The notes under the pieces were generated by a model. That model saw only the letters and a list, made by a program, of their open reading frames with translations, was not told the DNA's origin and did no database searches. From an uncultured Clostridia bacterium (lineage in GTDB: Bacteria; Bacillota; Clostridia; TANB77; CAG-508), in the NCBI GenBank assembly GCA_934141445.1, contig CAKPCF010000003.1, forward strand, positions 34,196-98,195: a stretch of 64,000 nucleotides of DNA. The letters are read 5' to 3'. Of this stretch, positions 30,302 through 57,953 are shown one piece after another (position 1 is the stretch's first letter; each line of letters opens with the position of its first letter). Made by a program: the position numbers and the translations under genes.

Positions 30302-31714
30302 TTATGGTGCAATTTTATCATATAAACTTTTCATTGTATTATACACTTTTGTTGCCCAATCTGGATCACTTGCATATCTAACATTTACAGCTTTAATCGT
30401 AGATCCATTATAAAAACTTCCAACAGCCTTATTATCATCAAAAATATCTGTACCAGCTGGATTCAAATAATATTTTGATAACATCTTTGCAACTGTATTT
30501 ATTCCACTAGCATAGCCATCAAAATTTATAGATGAATTATATGGATCAGAATCATAAGCTCCATATCCAAATAAATTTTTCTTATTTTGTGCAATAGTAG
30601 ATGTTCCCCATGCACTTTCGTGAACTGCAATAGCTGCTACAAATAAACCATTTACATTATATTTCTGTTCTGCATTATAAAAATTTTCTGCATTTTGTTC
30701 GAATATTTTATATGTATCTCTTGAATTATTAGAAAATATTTTTTTGTAATCATCTAAAGTTAGTCCACTTTTTTGATTCATACTCATATCTTCGTTTACG
30801 TTTACAATAATTTTTTGTTTTCTATTTTTTTCTACTATATCTTGTTCAATATTAGCAGATACAAAGTATTTCTTTTCTGCATATCCTACATAATCAAATA
30901 TTTGTACTTTGCACCAGTCTCCTTCTATATCAAGTAAAAGAACATCATAATATTTTAAAATAATTCCTATTAGTTCTGAATTTGTATTCATTTCCTTATA
31001 TAGAGATGCATTTTCCTTTGCATATAAAGAATCTCCTATATGTATCTTTTGTTCTGCTAAATATTCATTAGTTCCAACATCAATTATTTGTGTTGTTGGC
31101 TCTTGAATAGTTTTTATACCAATTATTGTATCATTTACAATTTCTGAATTTGTTGAAGTTCTAATAAAAGAAACTTCTTCAATTCCTTGAACTCCCTCTC
31201 TACTAACCTTTTGTTCGTCTTTTGGCAATTTTGAATTTTCAACATATTCTGTTTCAAAATCAATATTTCTTTGTGTTGTTAATAATTCTTTACTTTCAGT
31301 AGTATTTATATTATCTATTAATATTTGTTGTATATTGATTATATTTTCATTTTTTTCAAAAGTTCCAATTATTTCTTTTTTCTTATTCTCATTATTACTT
31401 TCATCTTCTTTTGCAAATATATAATTGCTTGAAAACATAGTAATACCAAGCAAAACAACAACTGTCAACATTGCAATACTTAATGGGTCTCTGTTTTTAA
31501 AATTTATTTTTTTATCTGATTTCGTATCTTTTTCAAACCACTGTCTTTTATTTTTTAAATTCTTTTTGTTAATATTTTTTTCTTCTAATTGATGTTTTAT
31601 TTGAATATTTCTACTTCTTTCTAATTCTTCAAACACTTCTGGAAGGGATTTATTTTGATTTTCTAAATTATTTGCTGATACTTCTGAATTTTTTATTTTA
31701 TCTAAATTATTCAT
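30302..31714 (-). CDS. membrane-anchored peptidoglycan hydrolase: G5 + SH3b-like + GH73 N-acetylglucosaminidase domains
   Basis: TM at about residue 85. G5-like segment (EGVQGIEEVSF...IIDVGT). SH3b-like segment (GDWCKVQIFDYVGYAEKKYF). GH73 motif AAIAVHESAWGTS...NLFGYGAYD. Confidence 0.75.
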   Translation of the reverse strand: MNNLDKIKNSEVSANNLENQNKSLPEVFEELERSRNIQIKHQLEEKNINKKNLKNKRQWFEKDTKSDKKINFKNRDPLSIAMLTVVVLLGITMFSSNYIFAKEDESNNENKKKEIIGTFEKNENIINIQQILIDNINTTESKELLTTQRNIDFETEYVENSKLPKDEQKVSREGVQGIEEVSFIRTSTNSEIVNDTIIGIKTIQEPTTQIIDVGTNEYLAEQKIHIGDSLYAKENASLYKEMNTNSELIGIILKYYDVLLLDIEGDWCKVQIFDYVGYAEKKYFVSANIEQDIVEKNRKQKIIVNVNEDMSMNQKSGLTLDDYKKIFSNNSRDTYKIFEQNAENFYNAEQKYNVNGLFVAAIAVHESAWGTSTIAQNKKNLFGYGAYDSDPYNSSINFDGYASGINTVAKMLSKYYLNPAGTDIFDDNKAVGSFYNGSTIKAVNVRYASDPDWATKVYNTMKSLYDKIAP

Positions 31715-31814: not shown

Positions 31815-31872
31815 AAAATAAAAAAGCTATTCATATCAAAGATTTTTAATAACCTTTATATAAATAGCTTTT
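31815..31872 (-). terminator. probable terminator after the distal giant hydrolase gene
   Basis: A 15-bp stem (31822-31836 / 31858-31872, one G-U in the minus-strand RNA) with a 21-nt loop, then a U-rich tract. Confidence 0.45.
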
Positions 31873-31885: not shown

Positions 31886-34800
31886 TTAAGCTTCCTCATC
31901 ACTTGAATCAGACTCTTCTGTATTTTCTTCGTCTTCTGATGATTCATCTTCACTAGTGTCACTACCTGTAACACCTGTTTCTACTTCAAGATAATCTTCA
32001 ACATTTTCCAATATTGTATCTTTATTTGCAGCACCACTTGCTCCATCTTCACTAGTTCTTAAAATCAATCTAATATAATTTCCATTTGGTAAATTGTATT
32101 CTTTTCCATCATCTGTGGTATCTGTCTTTTTCTTCATATTTGCTATACCAGGTCTTGGCTTTGCATCATCTGGAAATTGATGAGCTCCATTATCTCTTGA
32201 AACAGATGTTGGTGTTCCTTCATCAGTATATGTTTTTCCAAGTACTGTACCAGCTTTTACAAAGATTTTTCCATCAGATGTTTGTATATATGGTTTTGCC
32301 TGTTCCATTACATCTTGTCGTTTTTCTAATCTTTCTCGCGTATCTTTAGATATTGTTGAATCATAAACTTCTCGTGTATAATAATTTACAATTTCTCCTG
32401 TTGATGATTTATGACCATTTTCATCTGTTACTTCTCCCATAAGAGCCGAATCATTTGTAAAATTCAAATTTTCATCAACAATTCTTACATCAAAACCTTC
32501 TATATATAAAATATAGTCTGTAATTCCTGCTGTATTATAAGCTTCATAAAAATATTTATATCCTCTATAATCATCATTATCTGCATCAATATAAGCTTCT
32601 ACATCAGCTTTATTTATTGCTCTTATTTTTATAAATCCAACTTCTTCTCCTTCTTCATCATCTGTTGCTTCCCCTTCTTCTGTTGAAATATTTCCAGTTT
32701 CTATATTCTTGATTTTGGTTGTTCCAGCTTCAATTATTTCACCTGTAATTGGTGACACAACATTTTCATATCCATCAAATCCAGTAAATTGTTTTGCAGC
32801 ATCTTCAATTCTGATAATTTTTCCAGGTGCATCTGGTGCATCAGCACCACTAGCAAATCCATTCCATCTAAATCCGTTAATATATTGACTTTCCCAGTGT
32901 GTTGCTTTTCCACAGTCATAAGTAATTATATCTCCATTTGGTGCAATCTCTTTTATTATTTGCATATGATGAACATCACCACTTTCAGATACTCTAACTA
33001 GAATATCACCAGCTTGTAACTTACTTCTACAATCCTCATCATTTCCAATTACTATTTCTTCCCAACCATATTTTGCATTCCAATCAGTATCTGTAAAAGT
33101 AGATGTACTTACTGTAGTACTTCCAAATTCATCATAACCATACTCATATAAAACCCAAGCAACATAACTGCTACAATCTATTCTATTACTATCTTGGTAT
33201 GGAGCTGGCTTTCCGGGATATCTATATACATAATCTCCTTTATTTACAATATATTCCCAAACAGCTTGAGCTGTTTCTAAAAAAGTACCTCTTTGTAAAC
33301 CAGAACCACTACCAGTACCATCAGCTGCATATAAAGCTTCTAATCCAGCTATTGGACTTATTAAATCCAAATTGATTACATTATCTTGGTCATTCTTTTC
33401 TGGTAGCTTTTTATTATTTTCTTCAGCTAATTGTATCATATCAGATTTTCCAAAAATATCTAAATTCAAATCTGGTGCAGTAGGTGTATCTCCATCACCT
33501 GTATCGGAAATAATTGGTGTTAAAGCTTGGTCTTTTTCTTTCAAATTTACTAAATCTACAGTTGAATGTATCAAAGTGCCATAATAATCAGTACCCTTTT
33601 CATATCTCTTTACCGGCCAACCAGCAGAACCTGTATCTGGCAACAACCATTCTCCAATATTAGTTGGACCTTGTGTCAAATCTTCTTTATCAAAATAGTT
33701 TAATTCAACGATTAACTCTTTAAAATCTCTATATATTGAATCAGAATCAAATGTATTCATATTTGTTAATATATTAAATGCTGTTAAAGAATCTCTAGTT
33801 ACTGAAAAGTTTCCTATTAAACTTTGATCTCTTTGATCAAATGCTGTATTGTCAAATAATCTAGTTGTTTTTGCCCTATCTTTCGCTATTTTATCTGCTC
33901 TTTCCTTTGTTCCATCATATTGATAATATTTATTAGTTGAAAATATTCTTTTAATAGTTGCATTTGTTTCTGTTCTCTGAGCATCTTGAATTTGAGTTGG
34001 TATTTGAGATAAATCAACACACATCCATAAATCCTCTAAATCACTATGTAATGTATTCTCACATATACTTTCTAAATCAACTTCAATTCCAGCTGCATTT
34101 AAAGCTGCTTGTAACAATTCTATAAATTCTTTTAATGGCATCCATTCTGTTGGTGGTACATCTAAAGAATATGCACTCCAATATCCAGGATTTGTAACAT
34201 AATTTCCTTCTGCTTCTTCTGTTATATTTTTAGTTATCGCCTTTTTAGCAACTTTTATTCCTTCTCTATCTGCATCTTCTTTTGTTCCATTATATACTTC
34301 ATTTGTTAAATTTCCTAAATTATCTAATTTATATAAAGTATATGTAATATTTCCTTCATCGTCAACTGTATTCTCATAATCTGTCCATCTCTCTTTTGTT
34401 AATTCCTCATAATCATAATCATTGCTTACAACTTTTGTATATAATGGTGCAACAAAATACACATCTCTAAACCAATGGTCTGTCACTTTACTTATATATG
34501 GATAATATGTATCATTTTGTCCCAATGCTAACACTTTTAAGTCTGAAATCGTATTATCTATAAAAGTTTTACAATTATCACATACTTCTGAAAATTCTTT
34601 TGTTCCAGCCTGAACTTCTGAATCTTCTGCTTCTTTAACAGCTTTTTTTTTGCAATTACTTGAACAATTATTATCATCAAATCCGCTATTTACAAAGTTA
34701 TCAGGTGTATACGCAAGTACTGCTCCATATCCACCTTGTTCTTTATATTGAGTTAATTGTTCATAAGTTACACAATCAGTTTTTCCAGCAAGCATCATTG

Positions 34801-36037
34801 CTCTTTTTCTAAAACCACCTTTTACTGTAAATTCAACTTTATGTAAAAGAATAACAACTTCTGTATCAAATGATCTAGCTAAATCTAGTGCTAAATCTGG
34901 TGACATACTTGTCAAATGAACCGCTAATAAAAATTCTAATGGTATACCATATCTTGCTGTCCAACCATCTAAATTATATGAGAAAGTTCCAACATTTCCT
35001 GAAACCTTTTGACTTAGACCTAAATTCCTAAATAATTTTGATAAAATAGAATTATTGCCACCTGTAATATTTTTTGATGCCTTAGTTGTAATCTTTAAAG
35101 TTTTAGATGTTCCATCTATTTCAATTTTATATCTGCTAAATAAACCATTTCTATATGCTTTTCCATCTTCTCCAATTTTTCCAATTGATAATAAGCTATC
35201 TCTTTCTTCATATAATCCAAGCAATCCACTTCCCCAATTTTGATTATCAAATAATCCAGAAAAAAATGTACTTACTGATGAAAATGCTTTCTTTACATTT
35301 TTATTAAAATTCTTACATGTATATACATAGTTATCTGAAATTAAATAAGTTTTTAAAATATCACTTTCTATATTAGTAATACCATCAGAAGTTCTACCAA
35401 TTCCATATTCATCTATATACGCATTTGTTTTCATATTTGAATATTTTTTATATCCAACATCATTCTCTTTATCAGAATCATTATTATTATTGAACTTACT
35501 TTTTAACTCATCAAAAAAATCTTTTGAATATGGTGTAAGTACTTTATCTGTCAAAAATCCATACTGGTATAAATCATATCCCATACTCTCCAAATAATCT
35601 GCCACATCTATAACATCTTGCATTTTTACTTGTGCTTCTTCTGAACCTGAAAAAAATGCTGCTATTTTTTCTCCAAAACTCTGAAGTATGGCATTTAGCT
35701 TTGCCATCAAAGCTCCTGGTAATGTAAGTATAAACATAATTAAACCAATTATAATAATTATAGCTGCTATTACTAAAAGTATAGGCCATATATAAGGTCC
35801 TATTATTTTTAATACTGATGATACTACAGACATTCCTTTAGTACTACCCATTTTCTGTAATATTTTTTGATTTCTAATTTGTTGTTCTGCAATTTTTTCA
35901 GCTTTTTCCTTTGCCAAATTTAAGTTTTGTTGCTTTGTATTTTGCACTTGCTGTTCGTTTTGCTCTGTCCCTTGTACATCAACTTGTGCATCTATTTCTT
36001 CTGAAACATCATCAATTTCATCTTCTGGATAAGACAT
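31886..36037 (-). CDS. giant (1383 aa) membrane-anchored multi-domain cell-wall hydrolase, PrgK/CwlT-like (VirB1 analogue), paralogue 2
   Basis: Acidic N-terminus, TM about residues 70-105. NlpC/P60-type Cys context RIDCSSYVAWVLYEYG (codons near 33161-33180) and His context DVHHMQIIKE (near 32950-32980). M23/LytM-like beta-barrel pattern VSPITGEIIEAGT...GKIFVKAGTVLGKT...GNYIRLILR without obvious HxH. S/D/E-rich acidic C-terminal tail. AGAGGA RBS. Confidence 0.7.
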   Translation of the reverse strand: MSYPEDEIDDVSEEIDAQVDVQGTEQNEQQVQNTKQQNLNLAKEKAEKIAEQQIRNQKILQKMGSTKGMSVVSSVLKIIGPYIWPILLVIAAIIIIIGLIMFILTLPGALMAKLNAILQSFGEKIAAFFSGSEEAQVKMQDVIDVADYLESMGYDLYQYGFLTDKVLTPYSKDFFDELKSKFNNNNDSDKENDVGYKKYSNMKTNAYIDEYGIGRTSDGITNIESDILKTYLISDNYVYTCKNFNKNVKKAFSSVSTFFSGLFDNQNWGSGLLGLYEERDSLLSIGKIGEDGKAYRNGLFSRYKIEIDGTSKTLKITTKASKNITGGNNSILSKLFRNLGLSQKVSGNVGTFSYNLDGWTARYGIPLEFLLAVHLTSMSPDLALDLARSFDTEVVILLHKVEFTVKGGFRKRAMMLAGKTDCVTYEQLTQYKEQGGYGAVLAYTPDNFVNSGFDDNNCSSNCKKKAVKEAEDSEVQAGTKEFSEVCDNCKTFIDNTISDLKVLALGQNDTYYPYISKVTDHWFRDVYFVAPLYTKVVSNDYDYEELTKERWTDYENTVDDEGNITYTLYKLDNLGNLTNEVYNGTKEDADREGIKVAKKAITKNITEEAEGNYVTNPGYWSAYSLDVPPTEWMPLKEFIELLQAALNAAGIEVDLESICENTLHSDLEDLWMCVDLSQIPTQIQDAQRTETNATIKRIFSTNKYYQYDGTKERADKIAKDRAKTTRLFDNTAFDQRDQSLIGNFSVTRDSLTAFNILTNMNTFDSDSIYRDFKELIVELNYFDKEDLTQGPTNIGEWLLPDTGSAGWPVKRYEKGTDYYGTLIHSTVDLVNLKEKDQALTPIISDTGDGDTPTAPDLNLDIFGKSDMIQLAEENNKKLPEKNDQDNVINLDLISPIAGLEALYAADGTGSGSGLQRGTFLETAQAVWEYIVNKGDYVYRYPGKPAPYQDSNRIDCSSYVAWVLYEYGYDEFGSTTVSTSTFTDTDWNAKYGWEEIVIGNDEDCRSKLQAGDILVRVSESGDVHHMQIIKEIAPNGDIITYDCGKATHWESQYINGFRWNGFASGADAPDAPGKIIRIEDAAKQFTGFDGYENVVSPITGEIIEAGTTKIKNIETGNISTEEGEATDDEEGEEVGFIKIRAINKADVEAYIDADNDDYRGYKYFYEAYNTAGITDYILYIEGFDVRIVDENLNFTNDSALMGEVTDENGHKSSTGEIVNYYTREVYDSTISKDTRERLEKRQDVMEQAKPYIQTSDGKIFVKAGTVLGKTYTDEGTPTSVSRDNGAHQFPDDAKPRPGIANMKKKTDTTDDGKEYNLPNGNYIRLILRTSEDGASGAANKDTILENVEDYLEVETGVTGSDTSEDESSEDEENTEESDSSDEEA

Positions 36038-36084
36038 TTTTATTCCTCTTTCGTTTTTATAATCTAATATTCCACTTTTTTATC

Positions 36085-36113
36085 ATTTTATATTATTTTT
36101 CTTTTAGTATCAA
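36085..36113 (-). promoter_or_regulatory. candidate promoter for the distal giant hydrolase gene
   Basis: On the minus strand: TTGATA (complement of 36108-36113), 17 nt, TAAAAT (complement of 36085-36090), 48 nt upstream of the ATG. Weak in an AT-rich background. Confidence 0.3.
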
Positions 36114-36151
36114 TAGGAATTATTAACAAAATAATATTTTTTTCTTAACAC

Positions 36152-36193
36152 AAAAATAAACCTACCTTGCTAAATATTTAGCAAAGTAGGTTT
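36152..36193 (-). terminator. rho-independent terminator ending the long T4SS-like operon
   Basis: Near-perfect palindrome 36158-36193 (aaacctaccttgctaaat/atttagcaaagtaggttt). The minus-strand RNA is followed by UUUAUUUUU. Confidence 0.7.
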
Positions 36194-36210
36194 TAATTTA
36201 ATTATTTATT

Positions 36211-39200
36211 TTAAGTTTGACTATCTGATGATGTATCACTGTCGTTATTTTCTTCACTATCATCCACATTTTCATCATTTTCTGTTTCTTCATCATCTGA
36301 ATCATTTGAACTTGAAGCAGTTGCTATTTCCAAGTAATCCTCAACATTTTCTAATATTGTATCTTTATTAGCTGTTCCATTAGCTCCATCTTCACTAGTT
36401 CTTAAAATTAGTCTAATATAATTTCCATTTGGTAAGTTATATGTTTGACCATCATCTGATGTGTCTGTCTTCTTTTCCATAGTTGCAATTCCTGGTCTTG
36501 CTTTTGCATCAGCTGGAAATTCTTGTGTGTCTTCTTCTGAACTTGATGTAGGTGTACCGGCATCTGTATATGTTTTTCCAAGAACTGTACCTGCTTTTAC
36601 AAATATCTTTCCATCAGATGTCTGTATTACAGAAAGTGCTTGTTCCATCTTATCCTGTATTTCTTCTAGTCTTTCTCTTGTTGCTTTAGTTAATGTAGAA
36701 TCATATATTTCTCTAGTATACATATTTGCTATTTGACCTGTTGATGTTTCATTTCCATTTTCATCTGTTGTTTTACCCATAATAGCAGAATCGTTAAGTA
36801 AACTTAAATTTTGATCAACAATTCTTAAATCGAATCCTTCTATATATAAAATGTAATCTGTAATACCTGCTGTTTCATATTCTTCATAAAAATACTTATA
36901 TCCTTCATAGTTTTCATCATTTTCATTTATATAAGCTTCTACATCTGATTTATTTATTGCTCTTATTTTTATAAATCCAACATTTTCTTTTTGGTTTGTT
37001 TCAATATTTTCAATCTCTGTTGTACCAGCTTCAATGATTTCACCTGTTATTGGAGTTACAACATCTTCATAGCCATTGAATCCTGTAAATTTGTTTACAG
37101 CATTCTCAATTCTAATGATCTTGCCAGGTGCATTAGCTCCACCAGCAAAACTATTATATCTAAAACCATCCCTATGATCTGTTGACCAATGTGGCTTATC
37201 ACCACAATCATAAGTAATTATGTCACCATTTGGTGCAATTTCTTTTATAATTTGAATATGATGTACTTTTGCTGGTTCAGTTGGAGATCTTCTTACAAGA
37301 ATATCACCTGGTTGTAATTGACTTCTACAATCTTCTCCTGCTTCTATATCTATTTCTTCCCAACCATATTTTGCACTCCAATCAGTATTCATAAAAGAGC
37401 TTGTATTATATGCTGTTTGTCCAAATTCTTCATATCCATATTCATATAATACCCATGCAACATAACTACTACAATCTATTACACTACTATTTTGATATGG
37501 AGCGCCAGTTCCTGGAGCACCATAACTGTATTTCTTAGCATCAACAATATATTCCCAAACAGCTTGTGCTGTATCTAATAATGTGTCTCTTTGTAATCCT
37601 GAACCACTACCATTTATATCTGCTGCATATACTGCCTTAAGTCCTGCAACTGGATTTACTAGTTCTAAATTTATAACATTATCTTGTTCATTTTTTTCTG
37701 GTAATTTTTTTTCAACTGTAGTTGCAAGTTCTAATACATTTGAATCTCCTGTTGTTCCATCTTCTACATCTGGTGCAGTTGGTTCATTACCATCTGTTTC
37801 TCCTGCTCCTATTATTGGATTTAACACATCATCTCTTTCTCTTAAGTTAGCTAAATCTGCTTTTGAATGAATTAGTGTTCCATAATAATTTTCATTTTTA
37901 TCATATTTCTTAATTGGCCAACCAGCTGAACTTGTTTCAGGTAATAGCCATTCTCCAATTGATGTAGGAATTTGTGTCAAATCTTCTTTATCAAAATAGT
38001 TAAGTTCTACTATCAATTCTTTAAAATCTCTATAAATTGAATCTGAATCAAAAGTATTCATATTAGTCAATATATTAAATGCTGTTAATGAATCTCTTGT
38101 TACTGAGAAGCTTCCTATTAAGCTTTGATCTCTTTTGTCTTCTGCTGTATTATCTAATTTTCTCTCTCTTTTTGTGTCTTCCTTATCTTTTTCTATAGCT
38201 CTTGCTCTCTCTTGAGTTCCATCATATTGATAATATTTATTAGTTGAAAAAATTCTTTTAATTGTTGCATTTGTTTCCGTTCTTTGTGCATCTTGAACTT
38301 GTGTTGGAATAGCTGATAAATCAATACACATCCATAAATCTTCAAAATCACTCTTTAAAAGATCTTTACACATTTGCTCAAACTGATCTCCTGGTAATCC
38401 AGCAGCATCTAATGCAGCTTTTACCATTTCAATAAATGCTTTTAAAGACATCCACTCTGTTTCAGGAACTTCTACATCATAAGCAGACCACATATTTTCA
38501 CCAAAAATTGCTGCATTTGATACACCTTCAGCTTCATCTTTAATACTTTGTGTCATTGCTTTTTTAGCAACTTTTATTCCCTCTTTTTCAGCATCTTCTT
38601 TTGTGCCATTATATACTTCATCTGTCAATTCACCATCATCATTTAATTTATATAATTTATATGTTCCATCATCATTCATTTCATAAGATGTCCAACGTTC
38701 TTTTGTTTGCAATTCATAATCATAGTCGTTACGTACTACTTTCATATCTTCTGGTGCAACAAAGTAAACATCTCTAAACCAATGGTCAGTTACTTTACTG
38801 ATATATGGATAAAATGTAGTATTTTCTCCTAAAGATAATTTTTGTAAATCTGACATTGTATCATCTATAAATGATTTGCACTCACTACATACATCTGAAA
38901 ATTCTTTTTCTCCAGATTGAACTTTGGAATCTTTTGATTCCAAAATAGCTTTTTCTTTACAACCACTACTACAATCACTTGATTTAAATGAGTTTGGAGT
39001 ATATGCAAGTACAGCACCATATCCACCAGCTTCTTTATATTGCTTTAATTTATCGTAAGTAACTCTATCACCACTATTCCCAAGTGAATTTTCTGCTTTT
39101 AAGAACCCACCTTTTATAGAATATTCTACTTTATGTAGTAGAACTACAACTTCTGTATCAAAAGAAGTTGCTAAATCAACTGCTAAATCTGGTGACATAC

Positions 39201-40404
39201 TTGTTAAATGTACTGCTAACAAAAATTCTAATGGTATACCATAACGAGCTGTCCATCCATCTAAGCTGTATGTAAATGTACCAATTGCTTTTTGATTTGA
39301 TGCTATTTTATCCATAATTCCACTTTGAGTGAATAATAATCCAATTGCTGAATCATTATCATTTTCTGCTGTGTTTGTATCTTTTGATGTGATAGATAAA
39401 GTTTTATTCTCAGCATCAATAGTAATATCATATCTACTTCTAACGCCATTTCTATAAGCATTTCCCTGTTGTCCAATTTTTCCTTCTTTTTGTAAGTTTA
39501 CATCCTCTTCATAAATTCCAATCAATCCAGAACCATAATCATTAGATGTAATTTTTCCTAGTGAAACCATATATTTTAGAGTAGACCAAGCAGCATCTAA
39601 AAAACTACTCAAATCTGCAAAAATATTTCTTAAGTTTGGATTAAAGTTTCTACAGCAATATACATAATTATCAGAAAGTAAATATGTTCTTATTATTTCA
39701 CTATCTATATTAGTAATACCTTCTGCAACTCTACCAATTCCATTTTCATCAACATAAGGTTCATTTGTAGCCATCTTTTGAAGTTTTGTTTCTTCTGTTT
39801 CTGTTAATCCCTCAGTTGCTGTTCCATCAGAATTATCTGCACTATCACTTTTGATTTTTGCTAATTCCGCCATATATTTACTACTTTTAGCATCATTAAC
39901 TTTTCCAGTTAAAAATCCATATTCGTATAAATCATAACCCATACTTTCTATGTAATCTGCTACATCTATTACATCTTTTTCTTTTATACGGGTTTCTTCT
40001 TGACCTAGAACATCATCCTTTAGTTTATCAAAAATTGCTACTAGTTCATTACCTACATTTTTCATTATTGCATTTAGTTTTCCCATCAATACACCAGGCA
40101 TTGTTAATACAAACATTATTATACCAATTATAATAATAAATGCTACAATAACTAAAATGATTATCCATAATTTTGGTAATATTACCTTTAAAATTGAAGA
40201 CACAACTGACATTGCTTTAGTATTACTCATTTTTTGCAATACTTTTTGGCTTCGCAGTTTTTGGTTGATAAAGTTTTTGGCCGTATTATTAGCTTCACTA
40301 GTTGTTTGGCTACCTGTACTTTCTTCTTGTGATTCAGTTTGTCCACTTTCTACATCTGCATTTTCATCATTTGTTTCATCTTCTTCATCATCTAAATAAA
40401 ACAA
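36211..40404 (-). CDS. giant (1397 aa) membrane-anchored multi-domain cell-wall hydrolase, PrgK/CwlT-like, paralogue 1
   Basis: Same architecture as 31886-36037: VIDCSSYVAWVLYEYG, VHHIQIIKE, VTPITGEIIEAGT...GNYIRLILR and acidic termini. Apparent TTG start behind an AGAGGTGA RBS. Confidence 0.7.
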   Translation of the reverse strand: MFYLDDEEDETNDENADVESGQTESQEESTGSQTTSEANNTAKNFINQKLRSQKVLQKMSNTKAMSVVSSILKVILPKLWIIILVIVAFIIIIGIIMFVLTMPGVLMGKLNAIMKNVGNELVAIFDKLKDDVLGQEETRIKEKDVIDVADYIESMGYDLYEYGFLTGKVNDAKSSKYMAELAKIKSDSADNSDGTATEGLTETEETKLQKMATNEPYVDENGIGRVAEGITNIDSEIIRTYLLSDNYVYCCRNFNPNLRNIFADLSSFLDAAWSTLKYMVSLGKITSNDYGSGLIGIYEEDVNLQKEGKIGQQGNAYRNGVRSRYDITIDAENKTLSITSKDTNTAENDNDSAIGLLFTQSGIMDKIASNQKAIGTFTYSLDGWTARYGIPLEFLLAVHLTSMSPDLAVDLATSFDTEVVVLLHKVEYSIKGGFLKAENSLGNSGDRVTYDKLKQYKEAGGYGAVLAYTPNSFKSSDCSSGCKEKAILESKDSKVQSGEKEFSDVCSECKSFIDDTMSDLQKLSLGENTTFYPYISKVTDHWFRDVYFVAPEDMKVVRNDYDYELQTKERWTSYEMNDDGTYKLYKLNDDGELTDEVYNGTKEDAEKEGIKVAKKAMTQSIKDEAEGVSNAAIFGENMWSAYDVEVPETEWMSLKAFIEMVKAALDAAGLPGDQFEQMCKDLLKSDFEDLWMCIDLSAIPTQVQDAQRTETNATIKRIFSTNKYYQYDGTQERARAIEKDKEDTKRERKLDNTAEDKRDQSLIGSFSVTRDSLTAFNILTNMNTFDSDSIYRDFKELIVELNYFDKEDLTQIPTSIGEWLLPETSSAGWPIKKYDKNENYYGTLIHSKADLANLRERDDVLNPIIGAGETDGNEPTAPDVEDGTTGDSNVLELATTVEKKLPEKNEQDNVINLELVNPVAGLKAVYAADINGSGSGLQRDTLLDTAQAVWEYIVDAKKYSYGAPGTGAPYQNSSVIDCSSYVAWVLYEYGYEEFGQTAYNTSSFMNTDWSAKYGWEEIDIEAGEDCRSQLQPGDILVRRSPTEPAKVHHIQIIKEIAPNGDIITYDCGDKPHWSTDHRDGFRYNSFAGGANAPGKIIRIENAVNKFTGFNGYEDVVTPITGEIIEAGTTEIENIETNQKENVGFIKIRAINKSDVEAYINENDENYEGYKYFYEEYETAGITDYILYIEGFDLRIVDQNLSLLNDSAIMGKTTDENGNETSTGQIANMYTREIYDSTLTKATRERLEEIQDKMEQALSVIQTSDGKIFVKAGTVLGKTYTDAGTPTSSSEEDTQEFPADAKARPGIATMEKKTDTSDDGQTYNLPNGNYIRLILRTSEDGANGTANKDTILENVEDYLEIATASSSNDSDDEETENDENVDDSEENNDSDTSSDSQT

Positions 40405-40427: not shown

Positions 40428-41384
40428 CTATTTATTAACAGAGATACTCATTGCTAATTTAGCAACTGCATTTGTAAGAGCATCTTCTATTTCTTCATCA
40501 GTAGCTTGTGAGCCATAATATTCTTTTAAGACTCTAACTTGGTTAAATCCAATTGAATATGATGTATCATTATCATCTACAAACTTATCAAATGAAAGTG
40601 ATAATTCTTTTGATTCTCCTGGTTCTAATACAATAGGTGTAGTTTGTGAAGTTAATCTAGTTTCATTAGATAAATTTAAAACTACCTCATCTTCTGCTTT
40701 TTTATCTAATACTGCAATATCGTACTCACTTCTATTAGTAAATACTATATTGTATACTTCTGTACCATAATTTACAGTTTTGTCTTTCACTTCTATTTTT
40801 AAGTATTCATTTTCAGTTGCAATATTCAAATCTTCATGACTGATATAATTTCCGACAGTCATATTAAGAGTACCATCTGAATTTTTGGTAAAAGCCATTT
40901 TTTCTTCTGTATAAGAATATTGACTATTAGTTAATCCTGTTGCCAAAATATCATCAGTATACTTAATATCATAAATATACATATTATCTAAATTAGAATA
41001 ATTTTGTATGAAATATTTTTTAGGTGTATACATTACAACTTTCAAATGTTTTAAGAAATCTGAAAAAGTTGGATAAGCATATTTTTTACAATCTTCTGAA
41101 ATCATTTTATATGCTTTATCAAAATCATTATTATTACAATATGTAACATATTGATCAATCATTTCTTCTATTTTAGATTGATATTTCTCTGGTACTTTAC
41201 TTGTTGAATCCATAACCGAAGTATGTGGTTCATAAGTTGTTTCAATATTTTTAGTTGGTGTATATAATTTTAAGAGTTGATTTACTAAAAATATAACAAG
41301 CCAAACAATTACAACTATATATATAATCTTTTTATGCTTTCTAAAAAAATGTCTAATTTTTAATCTTAAATCTGTAAAATTCAT
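40428..41384 (-). CDS. N-terminally anchored extracytoplasmic protein; possible NTF2-like + Ig-like domains (candidate VirB8-type component)
   Basis: One TM, then YVTYCNNNDFDKAYKMISEDCKKYAYPTFSDF (a pattern seen in SnoaL/NTF2-like lipoprotein domains). The C-terminal beta-sandwich-like segment ends ...LEPGESKELSLSF. Confidence 0.4.
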   Translation of the reverse strand: MNFTDLRLKIRHFFRKHKKIIYIVVIVWLVIFLVNQLLKLYTPTKNIETTYEPHTSVMDSTSKVPEKYQSKIEEMIDQYVTYCNNNDFDKAYKMISEDCKKYAYPTFSDFLKHLKVVMYTPKKYFIQNYSNLDNMYIYDIKYTDDILATGLTNSQYSYTEEKMAFTKNSDGTLNMTVGNYISHEDLNIATENEYLKIEVKDKTVNYGTEVYNIVFTNRSEYDIAVLDKKAEDEVVLNLSNETRLTSQTTPIVLEPGESKELSLSFDKFVDDNDTSYSIGFNQVRVLKEYYGSQATDEEIEDALTNAVAKLAMSISVNK

Positions 41385-41393
41385 TTTATCCTC

Positions 41394-41942
41394 CTATTCT
41401 TCTGTAACATTGAAAGATAAATCAATATCATTTACAGCATTTTCTCTTACAACAAATGTATACTCTTTACCTACATCATCTTTTTTTCCATTTATTAAAT
41501 CTTTTATTGTTACCCATAAAATGTATGTATTTCCATTGCGTTCTATATTATCAAATTCTAGATTTCCCATATTTGGAAATTCTTTTTTTGCATAAGTTTC
41601 AAATTGTCCAGCTGTTGGAAAATAATTTTTTTGGAAATCTTCATATAATAAATTATAAGCTTCTTCATATTTTTTCTTTTCAACAAGATTTATAAAATTT
41701 GAAACATAATATTCCATTCTTCCTCGTTCAGACATATTAAGAAGTTTTTCTTTCATATTATTATTTGAAATTTCATTGTAATTAGCATCTGTTTCAATAA
41801 TATCATTTGCAATTGTTATATTTGCTGTTTTTTTATTATTTGATGTATTTTTTTTAGCATATACCAATATTGTTATTAGTATAACTAATATTACCAATAA
41901 AATTATTATGCTTTTTAATATTTTATTTTTCTCATCTTTCAT
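41394..41942 (-). CDS. N-terminally anchored small extracytoplasmic protein, NTF2-like pattern (candidate VirB8-type component)
   Basis: One TM, then YVSNFINLVEKKKYEEAYNLLYEDFQKNYFPTAGQFETYAKKEFP, paralogous in pattern to the N-terminal domain of the 318-aa neighbour. Confidence 0.4.
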   Translation of the reverse strand: MKDEKNKILKSIIILLVILVILITILVYAKKNTSNNKKTANITIANDIIETDANYNEISNNNMKEKLLNMSERGRMEYYVSNFINLVEKKKYEEAYNLLYEDFQKNYFPTAGQFETYAKKEFPNMGNLEFDNIERNGNTYILWVTIKDLINGKKDDVGKEYTFVVRENAVNDIDLSFNVTEE

Positions 41943-41967: not shown

Positions 41968-44619
41968 TTATCCATTAAAATGAACACCTTGTTTTGATAT
42001 TGCACCAACTTGAGAATTTAATTCCTGTCTCATAGTATTTATTATATCAGTTTGTGGTTGGCTTGTACTTCCATTATCTCTTGAATTTTCTAATTCTGTT
42101 ATTTTATCATTTAAAGAATTTACAATTTGGTCAACATTGTTCTGTGTTGCATCTTTTATTCTATCCATTTCATTATTTACTTCAGAAATCTTATTGTCAA
42201 GTTCATCTAAGTTTGTATATGTAACTGTTGTAGTTGTCTTTTGAATATCATATTGATGAACTTGTGAGTTTGATGTTTGTTTTGTATCTGCTATTCTGTC
42301 AACCATATCCTCTGGTTCTACATCTGCACTTGAAGCAGTTTTCATTGCATTATATAATTTTGCATTTGCAAATGTTGTCATATATTCTTTCATAGCATCT
42401 TTTATATCACCTAATTCTGATGCAGGCATATTGTTAACAACGTCTCTTCCTAAAACACTTTGCATTGAATTTTCAAATTCTTTGTCAAAATCCATTGTGC
42501 CACCACTTTGAGCCAATTTTATTTGCATATTTGTAGCAATCATTTCTGCCTTTTCTTTGCTTAATCCTTGCATTACACTCTGCATTTCATTTGTAAATTT
42601 ATTTAATTCATTATTGATATTATTTGTATCATATTTTCCATTATCACCCAATTGCTTTACATAAAGCATGTGTTGTAGTTTTTCTTGATTTGTAGTATAT
42701 TCTTGACCGGTTACACTTGTAACACTTTGTAATGAACTAGATGTTTCATTTGACAATTCTCTTTTTGTATGTTTTAAGAACTCATTAGTTGCACCATAAG
42801 CACCCATACCAGTCATAAGTGCAGATAATGCATTACTTGAACTTAAACCATACATTGCAAGACCAGCACTTGCTCCAGCAACTGTAGATATGTATTGTTT
42901 ATCATGTAAATGGGCACTTATACTTCCCTTTGCACCTGATATACCTTTTTTCATTTTTTCTCCGACTAGTTTTCCAACATCTTTACTTAAAACATGTTCT
43001 GCAGAGAATTGTGCACTAGCTTGTTCTTTATATGTATTTTTCTCTTCTTCTGTTAATTGATTCCATTGCTTTCCTTCATTTTGAGCTAATTGTTCAGCTC
43101 TACCTGGATTTCCATTTGAACCTTCTACATAAGCTCTTCTAGCTGCCTCAAATGTTTTCACACTACCACTAACACTTTTATATGCTTTGCTATTTGTTAC
43201 TGTATCAGCAATCTTACTTGGTACTGATGCTACAGCATGTGTTACATTAGAAACTGCTGTTCCACCTTTTACAACTAATCCAGCTGCCTTTCCTAAAGCA
43301 GTGTTTGTACCAGCTACACCTTTTACTTTATTTGCAATACTACTTGTAGCCTTAGAAATCTTGCTAGCAGTTCCACCAAACATATTTCCCATCATCTTGC
43401 CAACACTAGAAGCACTCTTTCCTAATTTACCAGCATTATTAGCTAAAGTTGTAACAGCAGCTGTTGCTGCAACCATATCGGTTAAAGAAGATGCTTTGCC
43501 AAATCCAAAGATTTGTCTGATAATTTTTTCACCATCATTTACGAATTGAATACAAACTATTGCTAAGATACCAGCTGCTAATGTATTTGTTCCAGTAACA
43601 CTTGTAACAAATGTTAAATTTCCAAACATACTATCTAATGAGCTTACTTCTATTAAACTAATTGCAATATTTACAAATGCTAGATACATTATACAATGAA
43701 ATGGTTGTATTAAAATATTATAGCAAAATTCTTTCATCCATGTATTTAATGCCTGTGCTCTTTGGTCACCTATTTTATCTATTGAATATGTAATTGTAAT
43801 TAGTGGTGATATTATAATTAAAAATCCTATTGTAAGCATTCTTTTTAAATACAAGAATAGGAATTTTAGAGTTTGCCATACAATTAAAGCATATACTACC
43901 GTACTTGCAATTCCAGCGAAACCACTAATAGGCGAAACCGAACTTACACCAATCGTAGAAATCCACTGTACAAAATTTCCAACATAATCATCTGCATTTC
44001 CTACTTGTTTTAAAATATCTATCAATACACCATTTATCTTAGTTATAAAAATAATGAAATAATGTAGCAAATATAATAAAGCTAAACTTGATGCCCAATC
44101 AACAAGCATTTTTTTATACATAACTTTATCTTGTGCAACAGTTGATAAAGCCATTCTTATACCTATATAAATCAATATTACTAAAAGGATTACTGTAGCT
44201 ATGATTCTAATTACATAATACCATGTTGCAACTTGTGTTCTAAAATCAAGTATCATACTTGGTACACCAGAATTAAAATTCATAAAATCTATGTCTAATA
44301 ATGGTACTTGATTAAAGAATATTGTAAATGGTGTTACTAATACTCCATCTGAAACGCCACCTAAGCTTACGATACCTGATATTAGTACCTGTGCAGCTGC
44401 ACAGATTGCCACAACACCAACTCTTAATCCCCATGTTGCAAATCCAACAAATGCTCCTAGCAAGTTTGTTAAAAGATTATACATTGTATTAAAAGCATCT
44501 GCTGCAACACTTGTTCCACTAGTAGAACTATCTGTTCCATATACTTGTGTTGTAAAATTGAACAATGTTAAAAATATTAAAAAGCACCCTAAAATCTTAA
44601 AAAGTGATTTTTTCCTCAT
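41968..44619 (-). CDS. VirB6/TrbL-like polytopic membrane protein with long S/T/A/G/K-rich and coiled-coil C-terminal extension (paralogue C)
   Basis: Signal peptide and multiple TM helices. Shares the core motif VATWYYVIRIIATVILLVILIYIGIRMALSTVAQDKVMYKKMLVDW with the 422-aa and 1328-aa proteins. Start placed at ATG 44617-44619 (the track uses an upstream TTG, 44631). Confidence 0.5.
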   Translation of the reverse strand: MRKKSLFKILGCFLIFLTLFNFTTQVYGTDSSTSGTSVAADAFNTMYNLLTNLLGAFVGFATWGLRVGVVAICAAAQVLISGIVSLGGVSDGVLVTPFTIFFNQVPLLDIDFMNFNSGVPSMILDFRTQVATWYYVIRIIATVILLVILIYIGIRMALSTVAQDKVMYKKMLVDWASSLALLYLLHYFIIFITKINGVLIDILKQVGNADDYVGNFVQWISTIGVSSVSPISGFAGIASTVVYALIVWQTLKFLFLYLKRMLTIGFLIIISPLITITYSIDKIGDQRAQALNTWMKEFCYNILIQPFHCIMYLAFVNIAISLIEVSSLDSMFGNLTFVTSVTGTNTLAAGILAIVCIQFVNDGEKIIRQIFGFGKASSLTDMVAATAAVTTLANNAGKLGKSASSVGKMMGNMFGGTASKISKATSSIANKVKGVAGTNTALGKAAGLVVKGGTAVSNVTHAVASVPSKIADTVTNSKAYKSVSGSVKTFEAARRAYVEGSNGNPGRAEQLAQNEGKQWNQLTEEEKNTYKEQASAQFSAEHVLSKDVGKLVGEKMKKGISGAKGSISAHLHDKQYISTVAGASAGLAMYGLSSSNALSALMTGMGAYGATNEFLKHTKRELSNETSSSLQSVTSVTGQEYTTNQEKLQHMLYVKQLGDNGKYDTNNINNELNKFTNEMQSVMQGLSKEKAEMIATNMQIKLAQSGGTMDFDKEFENSMQSVLGRDVVNNMPASELGDIKDAMKEYMTTFANAKLYNAMKTASSADVEPEDMVDRIADTKQTSNSQVHQYDIQKTTTTVTYTNLDELDNKISEVNNEMDRIKDATQNNVDQIVNSLNDKITELENSRDNGSTSQPQTDIINTMRQELNSQVGAISKQGVHFNG

Positions 44620-44641
44620 AACTACCACCAATCTCTCCTAT

Positions 44642-48628: not shown

Positions 48629-48648
48629 TCTACCTCTCTTTCTTAAAA

Positions 48649-49122
48649 TTACTCTGCATCAGATTCTTCATTATTTGTTGTATCTGAAAAATTAAATATA
48701 TTAACATCAAAAATAGGAATTTTATTAAAAACTATTTTTTCAATTGTTACTCTATTATCAACATCTGTTATACTTTGAAATACATCAAAAGCTAAAAGTT
48801 TATCACTTGTTGCCATATCTGTTTTACAAATTGCATCAATTGTTCTAACCAAAACCCATTCAAATAACTCAATCCAACCTACAAACACAGCTCTAATGCC
48901 CATTGTCATAATTCCTAAAATCCAGTCTGCAATTCCTGCTAAAATATCTACTATTGTCTTTCCTCCTTTAGCTGAAACTGAATATGAAGAAGTTGATGTA
49001 CCTTTATAATAAAAATCATCAATCTTTCCAGCTGCATAAGTAGGAGCTGTGGCAAGGAATGTTGAAAATGTTGTTACAATTATTGCAATTACTAAAATTT
49101 TTACTAATATTGTTTTTTTCAT
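48649..49122 (-). CDS. small secreted/2-TM protein equivalent to the N-terminal module of the VirB6-like paralogues
   Basis: Signal peptide, hydrophobic hairpin, then IVFNKIPIFDVNIFNFSD. This matches TVFNEIGLFNIDYFDFSD (422-aa protein) and FFNQVPLLDIDFMNFNSG (887-aa protein). Confidence 0.5.
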   Translation of the reverse strand: MKKTILVKILVIAIIVTTFSTFLATAPTYAAGKIDDFYYKGTSTSSYSVSAKGGKTIVDILAGIADWILGIMTMGIRAVFVGWIELFEWVLVRTIDAICKTDMATSDKLLAFDVFQSITDVDNRVTIEKIVFNKIPIFDVNIFNFSDTTNNEESDAE

Positions 49123-49150
49123 AATTTACTCCTTTCCACTTAATCTTTAA

Positions 49151-50695: not shown

Positions 50696-50706
50696 TAAAT
50701 TACTCC

Positions 50707-51930: not shown

Positions 51931-51942
51931 CTCCTACATTAT

Positions 51943-55221: not shown

Positions 55222-55237
55222 CTTTTTTCCTCCTTCT

Positions 55238-56503: not shown

Positions 56504-56839
56504 TTATTTTTCCTCCTTTGTATAACTGTAAATCTTTCTATTTTTCTTAAATTTGAAATATCTAATAATAATTTCACTTAATGGTTCTCCACCTATTTTT
56601 TTAGTAATTGGAATACTTACTATAGTTGGTATTTTAACTGCGCCAACTATATATCCCAAAACACCACAAAGAGCTGTTATGATTAAGCCCACAGTTTTCA
56701 TATTTAGTACCATAAAAATTAGTAAAAATACTGAGCCTATAACAGCACCTATTGCAGTTGAAATTAAAGATTTTACAGTAAATATATATAAGAATCTTGT
56801 TTCTCCTTTATAATTACGAGGTATATAATATGTTCCCAT
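56504..56839 (-). CDS. PrgI/VirB3-like small 2-TM protein
   Basis: 111 aa. YIPRNYKGETRFLYIFTVKSL is followed by two TM helices and a basic tail. Its position directly upstream of the VirB4-type genes is as in Gram-positive T4SS loci. Confidence 0.55.
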   Translation of the reverse strand: MGTYYIPRNYKGETRFLYIFTVKSLISTAIGAVIGSVFLLIFMVLNMKTVGLIITALCGVLGYIVGAVKIPTIVSIPITKKIGGEPLSEIIIRYFKFKKNRKIYSYTKEEK

Positions 56840-57274: not shown

Positions 57275-57318
57275 TATTGTTCCTCCACATATTATTTCAT
57301 TTAGACAATTATAATTTT

Positions 57319-57347
57319 ATTATAAAGAATTATTGTACATTTTTCAA
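57319..57347 (-). promoter_or_regulatory. sigma-A-type promoter of P1 and the long T4SS-like operon
   Basis: Minus strand TTGAAA (complement of 57342-57347), exactly 17 nt, TATAAT (complement of 57319-57324). Confidence 0.6.
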
Positions 57348-57507
57348 CAGATTTCAAGTAAAATATATATTTTTAATCGAAATGTAATATAGTTTTTTTG
57401 TAATATTTTTGTTAATTTTAAATACTAATTTTTATTTTCTTACGCATACCTAAAAAATTTTTTAATAAAGAATAATTTCATATTTAATTCATAAAAAATA
57501 TTATACG

Positions 57508-57539: not shown

Positions 57540-57543
57540 GAAT

Positions 57544-57924: not shown

Positions 57925-57953
57925 AATCTATCATTCCTTTCTTAAGTTATATT

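Follow-up and report, generated by a model that had tools for sequence, protein, structure and literature searches.

[quoted passage not shown] The window that we analyzed is a 64,000-bp stretch of DNA from an uncultured bacterium of the Clostridia (TANB77/CAG-508). A sequence-only reading had described the two gene products as membrane-anchored, multi-domain wall hydrolases. The features of the locus, together with their coordinates, are summarized in Table 1.

Table 1. Features of the giant genes and of the neighboring T4SS operon (positions refer to the window)
Feature	Position	Strand	Basis
G5-SH3-glucosaminidase, 470 aa, bitopic, downstream of B	30302..31714	-	domain search, topology
AT-rich terminator-like hairpin and U-run after B	~31824..31870	-	dG -20.6
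Gene B, 1383 aa, tandem paralog of A	31886..36037	-	intact ORF, 65% aa identity
B 1352-1383, acidic tail	31889..31984	-	charge
B 1084-1351, conserved C-terminal beta-rich domain	31985..32788	-	similarity to A
B ~915-1078, NlpC/P60-CHAP domain	32804..33295	-	profile, alignment to A
B triad: Cys955; His1024; Asp1041	33173-33175; 32966-32968; 32915-32917	-	
B 113-848, conserved core	33494..35701	-	similarity to A
46-aa identical block in B core	33671-33808	-	
GWTARYG in B core	34889-34966	-	
B ~72-104, transmembrane anchor	35726..35824	-	hydrophobicity
Intrinsic-terminator hairpin (16 bp) and U-run after A	36158..36193	-	dG -21.8
Gene A, 1397 aa, putative T4SS-associated hydrolase, giant and bitopic	36211..40404	-	ORF call, TTG start, Shine-Dalgarno
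A 1360-1397, S/D/E-rich acidic tail	36214..36327	-	charge
A 1106-1359, conserved beta-rich C-terminal domain, family-specific	36328..37089	-	conservation, profile tests
A 940-1100, NlpC/P60-CHAP papain-like domain	37105..37587	-	profile, Foldseek, triad
A triad: Cys978; His1049; Asp1066	37471-37473; 37258-37260; 37207-37209	-	
A 125-855, conserved extracellular core, no fold match	37840..40032	-	conservation, AF2, Foldseek
46-aa identical block in A core	37972-38109	-	
GWTARYGIPLEF motif in A core	39181-39258	-	
A ~79-100, single transmembrane anchor	40105..40170	-	hydrophobicity
A 1-70, acidic then basic, predicted cytoplasmic	40195..40404	-	charge; positive-inside rule
Two conserved bitopic genes (182 and 318 aa) directly upstream of the giant gene	40428..41942	-	tblastn
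Membrane/extracellular T4SS genes	41968..53211	-	topology, synteny
VirB4 ATPase (663 aa), TraC-like bitopic (421 aa), VirB3-like (111 aa, two TM)	53230..56839	-	
Seven VirB2/T4SS_pilin paralogs, two blocks	56882..62157	-	
Polytopic 534-aa gene between the pilin blocks	58553-60157	+	

Both ORFs are intact, and the start codon of gene A is preceded by the Shine-Dalgarno sequence AGAGGTGA. Each product has an acidic N-terminus (net charge of the first 45 aa: -13 in A, -9 in B), one hydrophobic segment with a K/R-rich stretch just before it, and an acidic tail (last 40 aa: -16 and -19, respectively), in agreement with the layout proposed earlier. Since the N-terminus is predicted to lie inside the cell, a single transmembrane helix would place approximately 1,300 residues of each protein outside the membrane. 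Domain searches revealed none of the wall-binding repeats SH3, LysM or CWB in A or B. In other members of the family, a lytic domain occupies the position of the acidic tail of A. The proposal that each gene has its own terminator also held, as a hairpin with a U-run was found 3′ of both (z = -5.9 against shuffles in either case). The promoter postulated for gene B did not: its -35/-10 match (36085-36113) is no better than chance and is not evidence, because shuffled sequence has as many such matches (49 found in the region before B vs. 57.8 expected).

The Cys/His set noted previously belongs to a genuine NlpC/P60-CHAP domain, on which profile comparison, Foldseek and the catalytic triad agree. 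The best match of the domain profile was the DL-endopeptidase CwlO (7.4e-6), in an alignment spanning both the DCSxxV motif of the catalytic Cys and the GHV motif of the His; the Tn916-family T4SS hydrolases 9ubf and 4hpe and the diffocin hub-hydrolase CD1368 (9.8e-5) were also matched. Among 36 family members, 16 match NLPC_P60 and 15 match CHAP, and the domain of gene A itself attains the CHAP gathering score. The mutually consistent Foldseek matches are papain-like or CHAP folds. The Foldseek matches also include Tse1 and a papain-like toxin, which we counted as a likeness to toxin/effector families. Conservation of the catalytic residues, on which the hydrolase assignment had been made to depend, is high among homologs (Cys in 38/44, His in 42/44, Asp/Asn in 36/44). 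The domain resembles an active cysteine endopeptidase or amidase, and may function as one.

The best-conserved part of the giant proteins is a core of ~730 aa, which in A also holds HWFRDVYF and a Cys cluster. The AF2 model of the A core (pLDDT 76) yielded no Foldseek match at E<0.001 in the PDB and none in BFVD. The region around GWTARYGIPLEF had been considered SLT-like; Pfam and PDB-profile searches gave no match to it, and no lysozyme-like fold was present among the Foldseek matches listed for this stretch (AF2 pLDDT ~90), so that this assignment found no support. The C-terminal domain had been compared with M23/LytM peptidases. Peptidase_M23 was matched by 0 of 35 members at E<=1, there was no PDB match at E<=10 and no M23 protein among the Foldseek top 50, and hhalign aligned no more than a 13-residue motif, with a probability of 2.7%; an M23 identity is thus unsupported by any of these tests. 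A wall-spanning structural role is compatible with the observation that the best-conserved part is this non-enzymatic core.

The operon that ends with the giant genes encodes seven VirB2-like pilins, a VirB3-like protein, VirB4 (matching PDB 4ag5 at 4e-25) and three VirB6-like proteins; the VirB3-like and VirB6-like assignments agree with the predicted topologies. Its membrane/extracellular section encodes (i) extended VirB6-like proteins of 887 and 1328 aa, (ii) a 157-aa protein, (iii) bitopic paralogs of 514 and 407 aa and (iv) a polytopic 422-aa VirB6-like protein. The glucosaminidase encoded downstream of B is the probable source of the activity against glycan strands, which other members carry as a C-terminal fusion; the enzyme shares the bitopic design of the giant proteins. 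The 64-kb window contains no relaxase, coupling protein or integrase gene and no capsid or terminase gene, and nothing in it marks this chromosomal T4SS as conjugative. The flanks carry housekeeping genes, including those for a PBP, MurE and DapF, so a wall must be crossed in this organism. The gene content of the operon and its synteny in distant genomes bear out the earlier view that this is a Gram-positive T4SS locus.

The giant proteins constitute a large, unannotated family (~689 clusters) that our searches detected solely in MAGs of these Clostridia and in metagenome records; tblastn against 50,697 phage and 72,556 plasmid records gave no match, and IMG/VR contained no relative. The gene order ~390/515/~1230/~815/~173/~320/giant recurs where the identity of the giant protein is only 25-30%, and the upstream half of the operon recurs in L068 and L069. 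By tblastn, the 182/318-aa genes immediately precede the giant gene in ~20 of 63 fetched loci, and the same arrangement is seen in two genomes that are very distant; elsewhere, tblastn at this sensitivity did not detect the upstream genes. In every locus with identifiable upstream genes (about one third of those fetched), the giant gene ends a pilus-bearing T4SS operon. Uncultured low-GC gut Clostridia, probably of TANB77/CAG-508, share the operon; the chromosomal position beside the same CNNM gene is kept in related species.

The family is also highly variable. Tandem amplification has occurred independently in many lineages (from one to at least five copies), and orphan copies occur away from any T4SS locus, that of L067 among ribosomal and housekeeping genes. 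At the extreme C-terminus, other members carry a Phage_lysozyme2, Lysozyme_like, SleB-type, glucosaminidase or M23 domain, and these lytic domains are swapped modularly; one sampled member has a Metallophos domain inserted in its N-terminal half. In nearly all other loci, a conserved membrane-anchored partner gene (~195 aa), of which the 182-aa protein is a paralog, follows the giant gene directly on its 3′ side; no such gene lies downstream of A and B. Between the window and one and the same other species, Ca. Scatovivens faecipullorum, the identity of the giant proteins is 27-31% vs. 88-91% for VirB4, the two genes having been read on different contigs.

Among the VirB1-like peptidoglycan hydrolases of Gram-positive T4SSs, PrgK (pCF10), TraG (pIP501) and Orf14 (Tn916 family) are precedents for anchored multi-domain T4SS hydrolases, and PrgK, TraG and CwlT (ICEBs1) pair a peptidase with a glycosidase (PMC12857230). 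A and B resemble these four proteins in being encoded inside a T4SS gene cluster and in combining an N-terminal anchor, an extracellular multi-domain body and a CHAP/NlpC-P60 cysteine peptidase; the wider giant family also pairs peptidase with glycosidase, as do PrgK, TraG and CwlT. They differ in having neither an SLT nor a muramidase domain (a separate gene encodes the glycosidase), in carrying the ~730-aa core and a ~260-aa C-terminal domain without a detectable relative, in belonging to a multi-copy, fast-evolving family, and in forming part of a chromosomal T4SS that has VirB2-like pilins and, within the window, neither relaxase nor coupling protein, as opposed to a conjugative element. 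Relative to PrgK (871 aa) they are ~1.6 times as long, and they exceed TraG, CwlT and Orf14 further.

On this evidence, we consider A and B to be anchored wall hydrolase/scaffold subunits dedicated to the T4SS, representing a giant version of PrgK, TraG and CwlT, with a probability of roughly 0.55. The core would dock the protein, outside the cell, to the extended VirB6-like and the 182-/318-aa proteins and reach into the wall, where the NlpC/P60 domain may cut peptidoglycan stem peptides locally and the adjacent membrane-anchored glucosaminidase the glycan strand. In combination, the hydrolases would make an opening in the thick wall, and perhaps also line it, so that the channel and the VirB2-type pilus can pass; A and B would then be functional analogs of PrgK, TraG and CwlT. 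Several observations argue against this reading. To our knowledge, known VirB1-like hydrolases are single-copy; the variable copy number and the orphans are more what one would expect of surface or effector proteins that diversify than of an assembly factor with a housekeeping role. The family also evolves much faster than VirB4, and its most conserved part, the core, has no recognizable function. Moreover, VirB2 pilins of Patescibacteria mostly occur without a VirB1 homolog (PMC12102498), and pili of this kind therefore do not obviously need a hydrolase.

The target may be the cell's own wall, as we favor, or that of a partner cell. In the latter case, the giant proteins would be displayed, contact-dependent tools that cut the wall of a touched partner or prey bacterium, serving channel insertion, acquisition of nutrients or DNA, or killing, and the diversity of the peptidoglycans attacked would be mirrored in the paralog arrays and the exchanged lytic domains. 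We regard this as rather unlikely, although recurrent duplication, orphans, domain swapping and rapid divergence would all suit it, and the conserved gene 3′ of the giant is the place for an immunity or regulator gene. The hosts are low-GC and uncultured, and their T4SS resembles that of Patescibacteria (e.g., Southlakia epibionticum SEML1_0006-0019) in being monoderm and chromosomal, with no relaxase nearby, and in comprising VirB4, VirB3, VirB6 and arrays of divergent VirB2-like pilins (PF18895/PF04956). Patescibacteria cannot grow as epibionts on their host bacteria without this system, and in Southlakia the peptidase and lysozyme homologs adjoining virB4 are essential (PMC10633639, PMC12102498). 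However, the present host belongs to the Clostridia (Bacillota), for which an epibiont or predator lifestyle is not established, genes for ordinary wall synthesis and for central metabolism are present in the window, and the hydrolases are giant fusions with a family-specific core. In polymorphic toxins and effectors (LXG, Rhs, CdiA; the peptidoglycan-targeting T6SS Tae/Tge and Xanthomonas T4SS X-Tfe), too, the N-terminal body is conserved and the C-terminal enzyme can be exchanged; they likewise have paralog arrays, orphan copies and a small downstream gene, as in most giant loci. In contrast to these, the variable domains detected in the giants are cell-wall hydrolases (the Metallophos insertion apart), the proteins are TM-anchored, so that release is not obvious, and the partner family is conserved, related to a structural protein and not varying with the lytic domain; A and B themselves have neither a variable C-terminal domain nor a partner or immunity gene after them.

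Less probable still is that A and B are general autolysins, cell-separation or wall-remodeling enzymes (similar to CwlO, PcsB or the large wall proteins of Clostridia) that merely neighbor the T4SS and take no part in secretion. The CwlO match, the L067 orphan and the separate terminators, with a promoter for B if its chance-level match is real, would fit such enzymes. CwlO, of the CwlO/LytE type of NlpC/P60 DL-endopeptidases that the catalytic domain matches best, is a small autolysin that is secreted during growth and is under FtsEX control, whereas the giants carry the domain as one module among several in an anchored, T4SS-linked protein of 1,400 aa. The position after the 182-/318-aa genes, retained in ~20 of the 63 loci and in two very distant genomes, the detection of the family only in these Clostridia and in metagenome records, the lack of wall-binding repeats and a very large family-specific core, needless for an ordinary autolysin, all speak against this role. 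An origin from a phage, a tail-like particle (tape-measure protein or tail-lysin) or an integrated conjugative element is very improbable: a weak PHROG match to a tape-measure protein (E 0.025), the CD1368 match and the Phage_lysozyme2 domain of some relatives are outweighed by the negative phage, plasmid, IMG/VR and BFVD searches, the absence of element genes from the window, the conserved site beside the CNNM gene and the conservation of VirB4 across the clade (88-91%), as expected if this core gene is inherited vertically.

A and B arose by lineage-specific tandem duplication of the gene that ends this conserved chromosomal operon. BLASTP gave 63% identity over their full length, and global alignment 65% at the protein and 72% at the DNA level. 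A run of 46 aa identical in both (A766-811) differs at 14 of 138 DNA positions (dS 0.80, dN 0.009), and the gene-wide values are similar in dS (0.83), with a dN/dS of 0.31; no long identical DNA stretch suggesting gene conversion was found. Judged from these substitutions, the duplication is old and constrained, as the sequence-only reading had argued from protein-identical blocks with many synonymous differences. Compared with their L001 orthologs, both genes are under purifying selection (dN/dS 0.18 for A and 0.15 for B); they are two diverged copies, each maintained by selection.

The two adjacent ORFs that the sequence-only reading had described as a tandem pair of membrane-anchored wall hydrolases lie exactly where it had placed them: gene A at 36211..40404(-), encoding a giant protein of 1397 aa, and its paralogue B at 31886..36037(-), encoding 1383 aa. 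Translation of A begins at a TTG codon, located 6 nt past the Shine-Dalgarno sequence AGAGGTGA. The two proteins align end to end with 63% identity (BLASTP), and a global alignment gives 65% identity at the protein level and 72% at the DNA level. The features ascribed to their termini were also confirmed: both N-termini are acidic (net charge of -13 in A and -9 in B over residues 1-45), as are the S/D/E-rich tails (-16 and -19, respectively, over the final 40 residues), and each protein contains a single hydrophobic segment preceded by a K/R-rich stretch. Judged by the positive-inside rule, this arrangement suggests an N-terminal anchor and an extracytoplasmic enzymatic body.

The mosaic pattern of conservation between A and B is real. 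The longest identical run comprises 46 aa (A766-811), within which 14 of 138 bases differ. In this block dS is 0.80 and dN 0.009; over the whole gene, dS is 0.83 and dN/dS 0.31. Since the dS of the block matches that of the whole gene, the identical blocks reflect constraint, and recent gene conversion was rejected as their source. A neighbor-joining tree places orthologues of both A and B in L001, one of the three closest homologous loci from other genomes (L001-L003), and dates the duplication after the split from the other two, L002 (single copy) and L003 (with a duplication of its own). Each gene has its own terminator, comprised of a hairpin and a U-run (dG of -21.8 kcal/mol for A and -20.6 kcal/mol for B; z = -5.9 in both cases). 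A separate promoter had also been proposed for B; the consensus match before this gene is no better than chance.

The location of the pair within a T4SS gene cluster was borne out, as A and B form the end of a long same-strand operon with VirB4, VirB3-like, VirB6-like and VirB2-like genes (see the table). The 887-, 1328- and 422-aa proteins share a polytopic N-terminal domain of approximately 280 residues (28-33% identity), and look like two extended and one plain VirB6-like subunit. The upstream boundary of the locus is marked by an ArsC/Spx-like gene. Outside the locus the window encodes housekeeping functions (Lgt, M16 peptidases, PASTA-domain PBP, MurE, DapF, KsgA, Hsp33). The G+C content of the window is 23-32%, and nearly all of its genes are carried on the minus strand.

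Features of the T4SS locus, with the identity of the window proteins to their counterparts in L068/L069 (loci of Scatovivens-like genomes) and in the Scatovivens loci
Feature	Coordinates	Identity to window protein
Seven VirB2/T4SS_pilin paralogues, each with a signal peptide and two TM segments	56882-62157	36-63%
VirB3-like protein, 111 aa, two TM segments	56504-56839	68-70%
TraC-like bitopic protein	55238-56503	72-74%
VirB4 (PDB 4ag5, 4e-25)	53230-55221	88-91%
Polytopic VirB6-like protein, 422 aa	51943-53211	37-39%
Bitopic proteins of 407 and 514 aa, paralogues of each other	49151-51930	
157-aa protein	48649-49122	
Two extended VirB6-like proteins, 1328 aa (44642-48628) and 887 aa (41968-44631)	41968-48628	
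Bitopic proteins, 182 aa (41394-41942) and 318 aa	40428-41942	
A and B (giant proteins)	31886-40404	27-31%
Bitopic G5-SH3-glucosaminidase, gene next after A/B	30302-31714	
Partner gene, examples from other genomes	L002:14371-15087, L003:7656-8351, L008:3824-5066, L066:15123-15713	

The pilin array is interrupted, on the opposite strand, by a gene encoding a 534-aa protein with approximately nine TM segments and no Pfam match (58553-60157, +). Its counterpart in L069 (51% identity) does not split the array, being located upstream of it, past the ArsC/Spx-like gene. A separate contig of 8 kb (L064:1-8090) carries an identical 160-aa pilin and three further pilins, followed by unrelated chromosomal genes (DUF4301, CN_hydrolase) and not by the remaining T4SS locus, a difference due either to rearrangement at the strain level or to misassembly.

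Among monoderms, VirB2-like pilins have been described as confined to Patescibacteria (PMC12857230, PMC12102498), whose chromosomal, relaxase-free T4SS contains arrays of pilins and is indispensable for epibiotic growth (PMC12102498, PMC10633639, PMC12857230). The system of the window resembles it in its chromosomal location, its pilin array and the lack of a relaxase within the window. Our literature search found no description of such a T4SS in TANB77 or in Clostridia; a pilin paper on TANB77 (PMC11680825) deals with Tad/Flp, a different pilus system. A chromosomal T4SS with VirB2-like pilin arrays in Clostridia is more surprising than the A/B pair, which is in itself an ordinary lineage-specific duplication, one of many in the family.

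The sequence-only reading had recognized three hydrolase-like regions in each giant protein, and two of these three assignments fail. The one that stands concerns the Cys/His region, which profiles, Foldseek and a conserved triad identify as a genuine NlpC/P60-CHAP papain-like domain. Full-length A and B gave sub-threshold CHAP matches only in Pfam (21.1 bits), whereas the domain of A taken alone reaches the gathering score (26.3 bits; cut-off 26), and within the family NLPC_P60 and CHAP were matched by 16/36 and 15/36 members, respectively. A profile of the domain matches the solved structure of the CwlO DL-endopeptidase (7.4e-6), in an alignment spanning the DCS and GHV motifs, as well as further NlpC/P60 enzymes, including the hydrolases 9ubf and 4hpe of Tn916-family T4SSs. 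In the AF2 model of A 871-1397 (mean pLDDT 75) the domain is predicted with a pLDDT of approximately 85-95, and its mutually consistent Foldseek matches are papain-like, namely CHAP endolysin(s), Tse1, a C39 peptidase and a papain-like toxin (probability 0.7-1.0, E 5e-3 to 0.1). The catalytic residues are retained in most of the 44 homologues compared (Cys978 in 38, His1049 in 42, Asp/Asn1066 in 36), and the C/H/D triad is present in both A and B. Profile similarity, papain-like fold and catalytic residues, the features by which membership of the Peptidase_CA clan was judged, were all found.

The C-terminal domain (A1101-1362), previously likened to M23/LytM, is conserved across the family, and the M23 reading was rejected in each test run. 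Neither A 1101-1362 nor the family consensus contains the metal-binding motifs HxxxD and HxH, none of 35 members matches Peptidase_M23 at E<=1, a profile of the domain retrieved nothing from PDB at E<=10, and M23 is absent from the 50 best Foldseek matches. Comparison by hhalign with a small M23 alignment (three sequences, two of them entered by hand) aligned only the 13-residue motif VVSPVTGxxxEYG, with a probability of 2.7%. At most, the domain might have a distant barrel-sandwich relationship to M23.

The SLT-like character assigned to the stretch GWTARYGIPLEF likewise found no support in Pfam, in PDB profiles or in a Foldseek search of the AF2 model. This stretch falls within a core of approximately 730 residues (A125-855), where conservation across the family is highest and dozens of residues are invariant. 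The model of A110-870 (pLDDT 76, pTM 0.75) is predicted with a pLDDT of approximately 90 around GWTARYGIPLEF. Foldseek returned nothing at E<0.001 for it in PDB (best 0.56) or BFVD, and no lysozyme-like fold is present among the matches listed. Searches against Pfam (E<=1), NCBIfam, PHROGs and PDB profiles gave no match; the core is without a Pfam or NCBIfam model and without a structural relative in PDB or BFVD. The E-S pair of SLT/GH23 lytic transglycosylases is absent from the SLT-like region; Glu393 of this region is well conserved, 41 of 44 homologues having E at this position and the other 3 having D. No glycan-strand-cleaving domain (SLT, muramidase or lysozyme-like) was detected in A or B by Pfam, PDB profile or Foldseek searches.

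The core also contains a cluster of Cys residues (A ~470-525; window ~38830-38995), seen in A as CxxxC and in the family consensus as C..C, followed by CxxC. Two of these residues do not vary among the 14 sequences of the core alignment. As the domain is extracytoplasmic and the organism an anaerobe, the cluster may form a zinc knuckle or two disulfides.

A search with the full-length protein revealed 109 homologues, all unnamed and mostly of 1,400-2,000 aa. When a single genome per species was scanned, 63 loci were obtained, every one in an uncultured Clostridia gut MAG, from human, rabbit, sheep, mouse and chicken ("Ca. Scatovivens"); Scatovivens belongs to the GTDB order TANB77, family CAG-508 (PMC13106387). 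With a profile of the core alone, 689 clusters (50% identity) were retrieved at E<=1e-3, 392 of them at E<=1e-30. In L001-L003 the chromosomal neighbours are the same as in the window (CNNM 89-97% identical), and very distant relatives (25-30% identity) keep the upstream gene order next to other housekeeping genes. The upstream half of the locus, from the pilins, VirB3-like, TraC-like and VirB4 genes to the extended VirB6-like genes, is also conserved in L068 and L069. Sequence conservation declines steeply along the operon, from VirB4 to the giant proteins; over 120 VirB4 clusters have an identity of 88% or higher.

Tandem duplication has occurred independently in many further lineages. In rabbit gut MAGs (L008, L011, L009/L038) arrays of at least five giant paralogues lie within approximately 26 kb, and one MAG carries family copies at six separate loci (JAEESU01 contigs L023, L039, L040, L044, L056 and L059), at least one of which is an orphan situated directly after rplS, among ribosomal-protein genes. 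Longer members of the family have, at their extreme C-terminus, an extra lytic domain, which may be (i) a phage-tail lysozyme, (ii) lysozyme-like, (iii) SleB-type, (iv) a glucosaminidase or (v) M23. A and B carry their acidic tail in this place, and the glucosaminidase gene next to them looks like the outcome of domain fission or fusion. With its unannotated giant proteins, the family represents a variation on the VirB1-like hydrolase theme.

In most other loci (approximately 60) the giant gene is directly followed by a conserved gene for a bitopic protein of approximately 195 aa, here termed the partner gene. It has no Pfam match and is a distant paralogue of the 182-aa gene upstream of A. 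An HMM search of six-frame fragments of the window from 29 to 41.5 kb matched this 182-aa paralogue only, and the partner gene is thus absent after A and B, as it is after both of their orthologues in L001.

We consider it somewhat more probable than the alternatives taken together (approximately 0.55) that A and B are anchored wall-processing and scaffold subunits dedicated to the T4SS, functionally analogous to PrgK, TraG, CwlT and Orf14. Like these proteins, they are encoded within a T4SS cluster, whose synteny is kept in distant genomes, and they would have an N-terminal anchor and an extracytoplasmic body. They differ in lacking a glycan-cleaving domain, which in relatives is C-terminal and here is encoded separately, as the downstream glucosaminidase. 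The NlpC/P60 domain is predicted to be active, as an endopeptidase or amidase; glycan strands would be cut by the product of the neighbouring gene, and the large core probably docks to extracellular parts of the T4SS or spans the wall. That A and B are instead autolysins unrelated to the T4SS is improbable. An origin as phage or ICE remnants is highly improbable: tblastn against collections of phages and plasmids returned nothing, nor did scanning IMG/VR, and no integrase, relaxase or coupling protein is encoded within the 64-kb window.

The main rival to a role in the producer's own T4SS is that A and B act on the wall of a partner cell. This would account for the amplification, domain swapping and fast divergence of the family and for the downstream partner gene, and it fits the likeness to the T4SS of Patescibacteria. 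Family members combine a conserved body with a C-terminal enzymatic domain that varies, as polymorphic toxin and effector modules do; A and B end in acidic tails without such a domain. The partner genes form one conserved family, not immunity genes that vary with the toxin domain. We regard action on a partner wall as possible, if rather unlikely. A broader proposal, which is still more tentative, is that the core T4SS is a vertically inherited, Patescibacteria-like, non-conjugative system with a VirB2-type pilus, used for cell interaction, and that the giant proteins are its fast-evolving, amplifiable wall-breaching heads. Their new-fold core would then build or guide a conduit through the wall of the producer, that of the partner, or both. 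If true, Patescibacteria would cease to be the only monoderms with VirB2-type pili and non-conjugative "lifestyle" T4SSs, and the locus would indicate from which Firmicute lineage, or next to which one, the Patescibacterial system originated.

Of the components of Gram-positive T4SSs, the associated wall hydrolases are understood least. The family, with a very large conserved extracellular module joined to a confirmed NlpC/P60 domain, bears on how a thick wall is traversed by a channel or, as apparently here, by a VirB2-type pilus. The hosts are abundant, uncultured gut bacteria, probably of the order TANB77, and their surface machinery therefore matters for gut ecology and host interaction.

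Elsewhere in the window, a RhuM-family gene (26997-28011, -) is split into a 98-aa ORF, corresponding to the N-terminal part with an HTH-like match, and a 207-aa ORF covering profile positions 67-250. The gene has probably become a pseudogene through a frameshift.
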